Assembly (NCBI GenBank): GCA_037444385.1
Contig: JBBIMN010000001.1
Coordinates: forward strand, 1-25,915
Direction of reading: 5' to 3'
Origin: Acidobacteriota bacterium
GTDB taxonomy: Bacteria; Acidobacteriota; UBA4820; DSQY01
Length of the DNA: 25,915 bases
Part shown: positions 17,549 through 19,549 of the stretch, one piece after another
How the letters are laid out: each line of letters starts with the position of its first letter
Numbering within the stretch: position 1 is the first letter of the stretch
The notes under the pieces: model-generated
Database searches by the model: none
What the model saw: only the letters and a program-made list of their open reading frames with translations
What the model was told of the DNA's origin: nothing
Program-made: the position numbers and the translations under genes

Positions 17549-18697
17549 TCACGCGCCGGGCAGGGTGAGCCTCACCTCCGCGCCTTTTTCCCCGACCGGC
17601 CTGGCCGCCATCTGGCCGTGGACGAGGGAAGCGAGGTAGCGCGCGGCTGCAAACCCCAGCCGGTACTGGACGTGTTCGGTGTTTCCAGGCTCGGGCTGCG
17701 GCAGAGCGAAGAAAATGGTCAAGAGGCGCTGGACCGGAGGGCGTTCCTCGTGCTGCTCCGGCATGGCCACCATGAGGTGCGCCTTGCTGCCGCCGGTCTC
17801 TCCGCTAAAGGCAACCTCGCCCCCCTCCGCGCATAGAAATATGGCGTTGCGGACGATGTATTCCAGCAGCGGCTCCAGCACCACTTGAGAAACGCTGGTG
17901 AGGACCTCCTTTTCAACCGCGCCCGTGATGCGCACCTTGCGCTGCCTTGCCTCCTTGACCAGCCTGTCCTGAACCCTCGCTAGGACCGCGTTCAACGGAT
18001 ATGGAGGAACCGGCGCAAGGTCAAGGTTGCGCAAAAAACGCGAGAAGTCGAGGAGAAGTTCAAGCATCTCGGCCAATTGGGCGGTGTTTCTGTGAATCGC
18101 CCTCAACGGCCGCTCCTGTTCGGGATTCATCGAGCCGTAGCGGCCGCGGAGCAACAACTCGCAAAAGCCGAGAACGACGCCGGGGGGGGTTTTGAGGTCG
18201 TGGCCCAGGGCCGAGAGCAGGTCCTCCTGCACGTGCGAGCGGGCGTGAAGCCACTCATTGGCAACCCGGAGCTTCTCCACGAGCTGCTTCTGCTGCCTGG
18301 CTTGCTCCATTTGGTCGCTCACGTCGCGAAAGACGCCTTCGTACCCCAAAGGCTCGCCATTGGGCCCGGCAAGGCGCCTCAAGCTCCACTCGGCGTAGAA
18401 AACAAAACCGTCCCTGCGGCGGGTTGGCGAAACGAACGAAGAGACGACCCCCTCCGCGTCGGCCTGACGCCTCAGTTTCTCGCGGTACTCGGCGCTGACG
18501 TTGGTGTCAAGCGTGGTGACGCGGCCTATCATCTCCGAGGGCGTATACCCCAGCATCGCGGCGCCGCATTTGTTTATCTCAACGAACCCGCCCGCGTTGT
18601 CGCTGCGGTAATATCCGATGCCCAGCCCTTCCAGCGTTTCCAGCGACTGCGGGTCGGGCTTTTTCACCGTCCGTCTGTTTGGCACAACCGCCTCCAT
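17549..18697 (-). CDS. PAS-domain histidine kinase-like protein with degenerate HATPase domain
   Basis: PAS region (INKCGAAMLGY...RRRDG...RDVS), H-box LGHDLKTP, N-box IVRNAI; no DxGxG or GxGxG boxes. Start may be GTG 18685, since GGAGG at 18695-18691 is a good SD. Confidence 0.82.
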   Translation of the reverse strand: MEAVVPNRRTVKKPDPQSLETLEGLGIGYYRSDNAGGFVEINKCGAAMLGYTPSEMIGRVTTLDTNVSAEYREKLRRQADAEGVVSSFVSPTRRRDGFVFYAEWSLRRLAGPNGEPLGYEGVFRDVSDQMEQARQQKQLVEKLRVANEWLHARSHVQEDLLSALGHDLKTPPGVVLGFCELLLRGRYGSMNPEQERPLRAIHRNTAQLAEMLELLLDFSRFLRNLDLAPVPPYPLNAVLARVQDRLVKEARQRKVRITGAVEKEVLTSVSQVVLEPLLEYIVRNAIFLCAEGGEVAFSGETGGSKAHLMVAMPEQHEERPPVQRLLTIFFALPQPEPGNTEHVQYRLGFAAARYLASLVHGQMAARPVGEKGAEVRLTLPGA

Positions 18698-18701
18698 TTT
18701 A

Positions 18702-18729
18702 AGTATACCAAAAACGGTTCATAGCGCAA
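18702..18729 (-). promoter_or_regulatory. sigma70-type promoter for the PAS kinase
   Basis: TTGCGC (18729-18724), 16 nt, TATACT (18707-18702) preceded by TG-G (extended -10); predicted +1 near 18695 is the first G of the GGAGG SD. Confidence 0.55.
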
Positions 18730-18789
18730 AAGACAAGGAAGTTCCATGAATCCGCGATGGCGGATTGGGAGCTTTCCCGGGAAGCGCGC

Positions 18790-19091
18790 GGGGAGCACAG
18801 CGAGAACCGGATCGAGGAGCGGAAGCGTGACTTTGCCGTGGAGCCTGTCTGCCGCCTGCCTGGCCGCCAGGCAGGCCAGGCGGGCGGATGCCGTGCGGGC
18901 AGTTTGAGGCGAACGCCTCCTTCTTCGCCACCGGCGTGCTGGCCTGCAACCTGTTCAAGCTGCTTGATCGGCGTGCGCTCCCCGGCGGCTACAGAAGAGC
19001 CCGCTCGGGCACCGTCCGCCACCGCCTCTATCGCGTGGCCGGCAGAGCCGCGCGAACGGGACGACCGCTGGTGCTATACAGAGCGTCATAA
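18790..19091 (+). mobile_element. IS1380-family-like transposase remnant (C-terminal fragment, disrupted)
   Basis: RGEHSENRIEERKRDFAVE in one frame and RMPCGQFEANASFFATGVLACNLFKLL...TVRHRLYRVAGRAARTGR in another resemble IS1380 DDE C-terminal motifs (family recognised from memory); left boundary approximate. Confidence 0.75.
18844..18884. repeat. 41-nt nested palindromic insertion
   Basis: Perfect 11-bp inverted repeat GCCTGCCTGGC-C-GCCAGGCAGGC (18854-18876) inside an imperfect outer hairpin CCTGTCTG.../...CAGGCGGG. Confidence 0.8.
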
Positions 19092-19128
19092 ATATACGAC
19101 GTCACGAGGATGTGTGACGCTCTGTATA
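19075..19128. repeat. perfect 14-bp inverted repeat with 26-nt spacer
   Basis: TATACAGAGCGTCA (19075-19088) and TGACGCTCTGTATA (19115-19128). Confidence 0.9.
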
Positions 19129-19153
19129 ACAGCCTCTCTTTCCCCCCAACCCT

Positions 19154-19549
19154 TCACTCTTCACCCTCCGCTCCTTTGAGACACTCCTCCACTTCCTGCG
19201 GGAAGGTCTTGACCTTGATCGGTTTGGCGATGTAGCCGTTGAAGCCGGCGGCGAGAAAGCGCTCGCGGTCTCCGCGCATTGCGTGGGCGGTAAGGGCAAT
19301 GACGGGAAGCTTGGCGAAGCCGGGCCGCAGGCGAAGTTCGGCGAGAAGCGTGACGCCATCGCATCCGGGAAGCTGCACGTCCAGCAAAATAAGGTCGGGG
19401 GGCGGCCCCTTCAGCGCATCGAGCGCCTCCTGCGCGTTCATGGCGGTCAAGGTTTTCCAGCCGGCGTGCTCCAGCACGTAAACGGTGAGGTCGAGGTTGG
19501 CTTTGTTGTCCTCCACTATGAGAACCGTCTTGGGCTGGCCGCTCATCAT
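19154..19549 (-). CDS. single-domain response regulator (DivK/CheY-like)
   Basis: LIVEDNKAN, ILLDVQLPGCDG, IALTAHAMRGDRE, YIAKPI; ATGA overlap with the hybrid kinase stop. Confidence 0.92.
   Translation of the reverse strand: MMSGQPKTVLIVEDNKANLDLTVYVLEHAGWKTLTAMNAQEALDALKGPPPDLILLDVQLPGCDGVTLLAELRLRPGFAKLPVIALTAHAMRGDRERFLAAGFNGYIAKPIKVKTFPQEVEECLKGAEGEE

Follow-up and report, generated by a model that had tools for sequence, protein, structure and literature searches.

The window, meaning the whole stretch of 25,915 nucleotides that was analysed, contains two minus-strand genes of a two-component operon, separated by a spacer of 456 nt (18698-19153). The spacer is bordered on its left by a histidine kinase gene, the start of which lies upstream of, and on the opposite strand to, a transposase remnant, and on its right by a response regulator gene. 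The plus strand of the spacer holds about 97 codons of an IS1380-family transposase, split over two frames, and between the two parts lies an insert of 41 nt (18844-18884), which is composed of a 20-nt imperfect palindrome with a perfect 21-nt palindrome in its loop. In order along the window, the features are:

17549-18697, minus strand: histidine kinase gene, PAS type, left border of the spacer
18757-18843, plus strand: IS1380-family transposase remnant, part before the insert, reading ...ENRIEERKRDFAVE
18844-18854, plus strand: left half of the outer 20-nt element, CCTGTCTGCCG
18855-18875, no strand assigned: inner 21-nt perfect palindrome, in the 4-nt loop of the outer element
18876-18884, plus strand: right half of the outer 20-nt element, CCAGGCGGG, with one private A-to-G change
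18885-19074, plus strand: IS1380-family transposase remnant, part after the insert, reading RMPCGQFEANASFF...GRPLVL
19154-19549, minus strand: response regulator gene, right border of the spacer

When position 18843 is joined to 18885, a single frame results that reads ...ENRIEERKRDFAVERMPCGQFEANASFF..., and the joined peptide matches both Pfam PF13701 (positions 328-411 of 435 in a profile search) and the NCBIfam IS1380 transposase NF033539 (positions 330-413 of 419, E 4.5e-20), the score for the latter remaining under the full-length cut-off because just a fragment of the gene is left. With only some 97 codons remaining, a complete DDE catalytic domain and terminal inverted repeats are absent from the remnant, which is the C-terminal quarter of an IS1380-family gene that was dead independently of the insert. 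A protein search detected the remnant stretch in 8 of 41 related genomes, this MAG included. Seven aligned relatives, from six other genomes, are uninterrupted at the junction, where the protein reads D-F-x-(M/V/L)-E-R-M-P-C-G-Q and the DNA ...GAG CGN ATG CC.... Since all seven relatives are contiguous at this point, the 41 nt represent a true insertion, both flanks of which are ancestral transposase codons; the frame that is restored by joining them sets its borders. No target duplication is present at the borders of 18844-18884. An empty allele at the orthologous locus was not found in four same-genus genomes, in which the histidine kinase gene has 70-76% protein identity and a non-syntenic upstream neighbourhood, and the data examined contain none for this exact site.

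Other repeats occur near this site and elsewhere in the MAG. Positions 19075-19130 are occupied by a 55-nt MITE/REP-like palindromic repeat with the arms TATACAGAGCGTCAT and ATGACGCTCTGTATA, of which there are 11 copies with unrelated flanks in this MAG and further copies on other contigs of the same run. The remnant frame reads into this repeat (..PLVLYRAS stop), which therefore bounds or truncates the remnant, and the TA found at each end of the repeat may be a target duplication. Two further words are highly repeated in the MAG, CCCCAATCCCGCGAT with about 35 occurrences and GAAATACGCTGGCATTC with 18; they probably represent CRISPR arrays or some other type of repeat.

The inner palindrome of the insert has the form CCTGCCTGGC-C-GCCAGGCAGG (10-1-10) and is found at one locus in the window, where 0 were expected from 100 shuffles; owing to a shared C, the split between outer and inner unit can be moved by one base. 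Both units resemble a sequence family that recurs in metagenomes. The outer unit is 19/20 identical to the family core, CCTGCCTGGCGGCAGACAGG, the reverse complement of which is displayed on the plus strand, and on the element's own strand the single difference is a T-to-C change. The inner unit is 19/21 identical to the 21-nt form of the family, CCTGCCTGGCCGGCAGACAGG, and both of its differences turn stem mismatches into pairs. Its perfect symmetry is most simply explained by a later hairpin-templated correction of these two mismatches, although this is an inference. The two G-T pairs of the outer stem differ in origin, one being the family's conserved C.A mismatch seen on the other strand and the other a private substitution; the conserved mismatch defines an orientation for the element. 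As free DNA the segment folds with -20.3 kcal/mol (z = -1.9 relative to GC-rich shuffles), and fold energy by itself is not what sets 18844-18884 apart. The local flanks hold no template for the insert. A scan of the spacer called no intrinsic terminator at the insert, where neither strand has a T-run following the stem, and matched no Rfam family there.

The original prediction had claimed that removal of 18844-18884 restores one frame, and both the IS1380 profile matches and the contiguous relatives bear this out; intact IS1380 relatives that already contain the 41-nt segment, which it had named as grounds for refutation, did not turn up, as the seven relatives lack it. The nested arrangement of a 20-nt outer and a perfect 21-nt inner unit has the coordinates and sequence that had been described, the two G-T pairs of the outer stem are present, with the separate origins given above, and the absence of a target duplication holds at the window borders.

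Within the MAG (2.25 Mb, 331 contigs, 73.5% complete) the family is easily overlooked: the strict motif is single-copy, and a census of perfect hairpins and k-mers did not reveal the family. Three more diverged copies emerge once mismatches are allowed, at C42:1510-1529 and C142:5941-5978, both found by searching with the C376 locus of a same-genus genome (G003), and at C238:252-271, found by a mismatch-tolerant scan. This amounts to 4 loci in the MAG, and copy number is low in most relatives too. Single occurrence in the genome had been put forward as an outcome that would refute a mobile family; it applies to the strict pattern, and it does not apply to the family as recognised with mismatches. 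When 2 mismatches at most are allowed, the inner 21-mer does not exceed a reversed control in number in 25 genomes of the taxonomic family, and in its perfect form it has 7 scattered exact matches in 185,579 species genomes. Two of these seven (L017 and L021, on Anaerolineae contigs) carry the perfect 21-mer as plain coding sequence for a DNA-methylase motif, ..GSGTT-CLAARQ-GR..., and are therefore uninformative; CLAARQ-like peptides can thus arise from ordinary genes and not just from inserts.

Across 401 genomes of the phylum, matches to a degenerate pattern were near chance overall, the exceptions being G013, of the same taxonomic family (22-24 matches, control 0), and G003 (two matches). 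The G003 copy at C376:651-670 is 19/20 identical to the outer unit of the window, and the two have flanking bases in common. The copies in G003, C42 and C142 are located within a small hairpin, which is a repeat in its own right and is termed the host repeat here. In G003 this host repeat is filled at C376 and empty at C404 and C8, with a difference of exactly 20 nt: the empty form reads ...GCTTCG^CTCCAGCGGG... and the filled form ...GCTTCG(20 nt)CTCCAGCGGG..., the latter being found also in C42 of the window's own MAG. The filled copies may descend from one insertion. By this comparison, the outer unit is a discrete insertion module. The C142 copy, whose 20-mer has 18 additional nt in its loop, is a second complex or nested case in the same MAG. 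Most copies seen in the window's taxonomic family are preceded by T(T/C)CG, as opposed to 3/79 metagenome copies among the matches listed. Next to the G003 element lies a repeat of about 135 nt (L041:931-1065, on G003:C376), with 18 copies in G004 and 7 in G001.

The G013 genome holds about 28 copies, mostly carried by larger repeats. It contains a 19-nt relative, CCTGCCTGC-N-GCAGGCAGG, located at the junction of two larger repeat modules (loci L051-L070 and G013:C70:994-1214). More than 40 partial copies exist, many of them at contig ends and beside ordinary genes (mutL, grpE), with no transposase adjacent to the copies, and some copies of the right-hand module are without the 19-mer. Six copies of a 20-mer variant, CCTGCCCGGCGGCAGACAGG, in the same genome (L090, L093, L095, L098, L100 and L101) are all preceded by a conserved left arm, ..CCTAACCGAGGACCGAGGGCGG, that is shared with the 19-mer in another repeat family; one module has thus been combined with different hairpins.

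A much wider distribution became apparent in metagenomes. The family core, CCTGCCTGG(N)CGGCAGACAGG, was searched with a query that required both core arms and left a free spacer of 0-24 nt, the other spacings serving as an internal control. At least 120 metagenome contigs were matched, and letter-for-letter identity between contigs is partly imposed by the search pattern. A spacer of 0, which corresponds to the 20-nt form, accounted for at least 64 occurrences and a spacer of 1, the 21-nt form, for at least 18, against 1-5 occurrences for every other spacer length found (2-23) among the matches listed. The core sequence was not found in the literature searched. The element was found in 5 IMG/VR viral contigs, and no enrichment was detected in 72,556 plasmids of cultured bacteria. 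Hints as to the host taxa are weak: the window's own MAG was placed near Thermodesulfobacteriota, a contig with a copy in an Obg gene near Patescibacteria, and eight contigs among the matches listed have proteins related to one that bears a type-IX-secretion sorting tail, a feature typical of Bacteroidota.

The recurrence is difficult to reconcile with a one-off local event, such as a repair scar, a quasi-palindrome duplication or filler DNA in a decaying pseudogene. In favour of such an event are the single strict motif in the MAG, the inner 21-mer at control level in the 25 family genomes and the merely 7 scattered matches among the species genomes. Nevertheless, both layers of the insert match a core that recurs dozens of times at other sites with exactly these borders, and the local flanks template no part of it, which makes this explanation very improbable.

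Flank statistics rest on 79 non-redundant 20/21-nt copies among the matches listed. The flanks of these copies are mutually unrelated, the GC content of their contigs ranges from 30 to 71% (median 43%), and target duplications of 2-5 nt show no excess over shuffled partners. Also among the matches listed, a G is found at position -1 in 46 of the 79 copies (58%), against 17.7 expected, and an A almost never stands directly after the element. The flanks pair as a stem of at least 5 in 13.9% of these listed copies, compared with 4.6% in shuffled partners (maximum 11.4% in 200 shuffles). In the hairpin-hosted copies among them the element is at the 3' end of the loop in 10 cases versus 4, which is suggestive only. 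Siting in hairpin loops and a G at -1 are thus above chance, and a copy's own loop is used repeatedly.

The last property is seen most clearly in three of the listed loci, L194, L209 and L162, in which a full 20-mer lies in the 4-nt loop of another 20-mer, a case of clean self-nesting whose position equals that of the window when the border ambiguity is allowed for. L209 and L162 carry a nearly identical 40-nt composite of outer and inner unit in unrelated flanks, and composites may therefore travel as units. This lends some support to the possibility that the composite of the window was nested beforehand elsewhere and entered the remnant in one event rather than by two successive insertions. 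Against this, the MAG contains no second example of the exact composite, a donor copy is not known, and the departures from the core are not the same in the outer as in the inner copy; entry in one event is possible, though less likely than not. The recurrence of such elements in metagenomes, which the original prediction had mentioned, is real, with occurrence numbers for both forms as given above, and its inference of an ultra-small mobile family that can target its own copies is supported by the filled and empty host repeats of G003 and by these three self-nested loci.

The two forms of the element differ in their relation to genes. Among the matches listed, long open frames contain 9/23 copies of the 21-nt form and 3/64 of the 20-nt form. 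The hosts of in-frame copies include the Obg GTPase, a hybrid sensor kinase, a Y-family polymerase-like protein and, on a viral contig, a capsule-synthesis gene. The excess of the 21-nt form in open frames is the pattern that purifying selection on a real insertion would give. It also bears on two other explanations. If the hairpin were a selected functional site, such as a terminator, an RNA-stability hairpin or a protein-binding palindrome that arose by convergence and is not mobile, its location in a 456-nt spacer within a two-component operon and the many copies in intergenic hairpins would be readily accounted for. However, there is no T-run, terminator call or Rfam family at the insert, and convergence cannot yield identical 20-mers with exact presence/absence borders or in-frame gene copies, leaving a functional site of this kind with very little to recommend it. 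An assembly or library artefact has to be considered because the metagenome is of low coverage and because metagenome assemblies, and not plasmids of cultured strains, are the main source of copies. A Logan contig, assembled independently from the sole public run with this DNA, a run of a subsurface metagenome, agrees with the window at every position of 18500-19300; its depth is about 6, and it represents contigs of one run only, in which population variants are not visible. Apart from this agreement of a second assembler, the copies carry substitutions and have been amplified together with host repeats, and an artefact could not know of open frames, in which the 3n form is enriched. An artefact is therefore the least credible of the explanations weighed here.

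A different kind of explanation dispenses with a dedicated transposase: at stalled hairpin tips the element would be copied by short-patch conversion or by template switching guided by microhomology, the donor for the window being a copy in the host repeat. Written on the element's strand, the window site is CCG^CTCCA and the host-repeat site TCG^CTCCA, so that 7/8 flanking bases are equal, and in the window these bases belong to ancestral transposase codons. The absence of target duplication and the location of the sites at hairpin tips, where replication stalls, are also in keeping with copying. That both sites have CG^CTCCA may be due to such template switching or else to a preference for this target. 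Yet most of the 79 metagenome copies among the matches listed have no flank similarity except for the G at -1, the borders are base-exact in very different contexts, and an identical core on contigs of 30-71% GC requires transfer between lineages, which goes beyond copying within a genome. Copying without a dedicated enzyme is, on balance, improbable.

Which enzyme might move the element has remained unclear. The original prediction had proposed a search for co-occurring nuclease or transposase families, and this gave no association for either Y1/RAYT or GIY-YIG genes. Y1_Tnp genes do not track the element, being present in 23/25 family genomes whether the element is present or absent. The two Y1_Tnp genes of the window's own MAG have no flanking perfect hairpins of at least 8 bp, and one of them is located on contig C42, 8.5 kb from a copy. 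Among the matches listed, a Y1-like ORF was found on 1/120 metagenome contigs, and no gene family recurs beside the copies on these 120 contigs except generic ones. Small stand-alone GIY-YIG genes were seen only in family genomes in which the 20-nt family was not found, and the own MAG, at 73.5% completeness, gave no GIY-YIG match. No mobilising enzyme is linked to the element in the data examined.

By analogy, the nearest described systems appear to be the small dispersed repeats (SDRs) of Nostocaceae and the REPs/REPINs, and the resemblance to SDRs would be one of behaviour only. Small dispersed repeats SDR4-6, especially SDR5, were reportedly described in Nostocaceae cyanobacteria by Elhai and colleagues in 2008. 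We know of no mobilising enzyme for them. As in the family described here, SDRs are gene-less hairpin units of 21-27 nt that insert as exact blocks, also into palindromes and other repeats. SDR5 enters the HIP1 palindrome, and no SDR is reported outside Nostocaceae (PMC5861425), whereas the core sequence of the present family appears unrelated and is found in contigs of 30-71% GC with very different gene content. A further difference is the low copy number per genome of the 20/21-nt element. REPs and REPINs are short GC-rich imperfect palindromes associated with RAYT transposases (TnpA-REP, HUH Y1; PMC3116915, PMC6006769). They share with the element that they are non-autonomous, are thought to move as folded single strands and leave no target duplication. 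Unlike REPs, the element has no GTAG/CGTC head, the flank tables revealing just the G at -1, is not arranged as inverted doublets, flanks no RAYT gene and is present in few copies in each genome, with about 28 in G013, as opposed to hundreds; nor are Y1 genes co-distributed with it. Membership in the REP/RAYT system was rejected on the basis of copy number, head, Y1 flanking and co-distribution.

IS200/IS605 elements and their derivatives without genes, the PATEs, also show hairpin-defined ends, substrates that are single-stranded, as is inferred for the element, insertion that duplicates nothing, and a conserved base on the 5' side. They are longer than 100 nt and have two different subterminal hairpins along with guide and cleavage tetranucleotides, whereas the element is one 20-nt hairpin with only a preference for G at -1. 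Ssn GIY-YIG single-strand nucleases operate with the hairpin repeats NTS/SRM (PMC11893778). These are likewise short oriented hairpin repeats that are recognised as single-stranded DNA, as is inferred for the element, and occur in distant bacteria. SRMs, in contrast to the element, have an HGTCWY head and flank the nuclease gene; membership in this system was rejected as there is no such head and no GIY-YIG match in the own, incomplete MAG. A DDE-type MITE was ruled out by the lack of target-site duplication, with none at the window and no excess in the metagenome copies listed. Rickettsia palindromic elements, which are 100-150 nt long and confined to one genus, resemble the 21-nt form in being palindromic repeats tolerated in frame in protein genes. 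Yeast mitochondrial GC clusters and Volvox organelle palindromes are GC-rich mini-palindromes that accumulate by mutual insertion; they differ in being organellar, in having other sequences and in their very high copy number in one genome.

Taking these observations together, the 41 nt are probably two members of one gene-less, ultra-small (20-21 nt) family of hairpin elements, whose movement in trans and joining to single-stranded loops are inferred. Both layers match the core, the insertion occurred into a known ancestral state, and the 20-nt unit is present or absent as an exact block in paralogous host repeats of G003, a sister species. The exact blocks, the lack of duplication, the G at -1, the loop preference and the defined orientation lead us to infer a single-strand, structure-recognising cut-and-join activity that acts in trans. 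A trans-acting protein would recognise the element as a folded single strand and, with no staggered cutting involved, join it to hairpin loops that are themselves single-stranded, as could happen at replication forks. The best guess as to this protein, to which we would give clearly less than even weight, is an HUH/Y1-type or other single-strand-specific nuclease-ligase. Because the element is itself a hairpin, its own loop would be a target, and the Russian-doll structure of the window is inferred to result from this. The frame-breaking pair of 20 + 21 nt could persist since the host gene was already a fragment, and the insertion has no functional consequence in the window. A broader reading can be offered only tentatively: the hairpin of 20-21 nt would be an independent mobile element, one of the smallest known, that spreads horizontally and homes to single-stranded hairpin loops, including its own, in distant bacterial phyla and some phages, moved either in trans by a class of enzyme so far unconnected with repeat families or by a universal host replication/repair activity. 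The kind of element to which the window copies belong is already known, though little understood, and no mover has been identified.

The locus provides an unusually clean proof of insertion for a 20-21-nt element, combining a conserved ancestral frame with base-exact borders, and a doubly nested copy that breaks the frame was able to survive there owing to the pseudogene context. When the filled and empty paralogues and the metagenome census are added, the core is defined, as are a size rule (21 nt within genes, 20 nt elsewhere), a preference as to sites and the absence of duplication. The size rule, the preference for hairpin loops and G at -1 and the lack of duplication are constraints for finding the mobilising activity, and a protein able to recognise a folded single strand of 20 nt and to join it would have practical interest. 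For the genomes that harbour such elements, the possible effects are seven extra residues in essential proteins, the disruption of genes and the formation of long hairpins at the junctions of operons.
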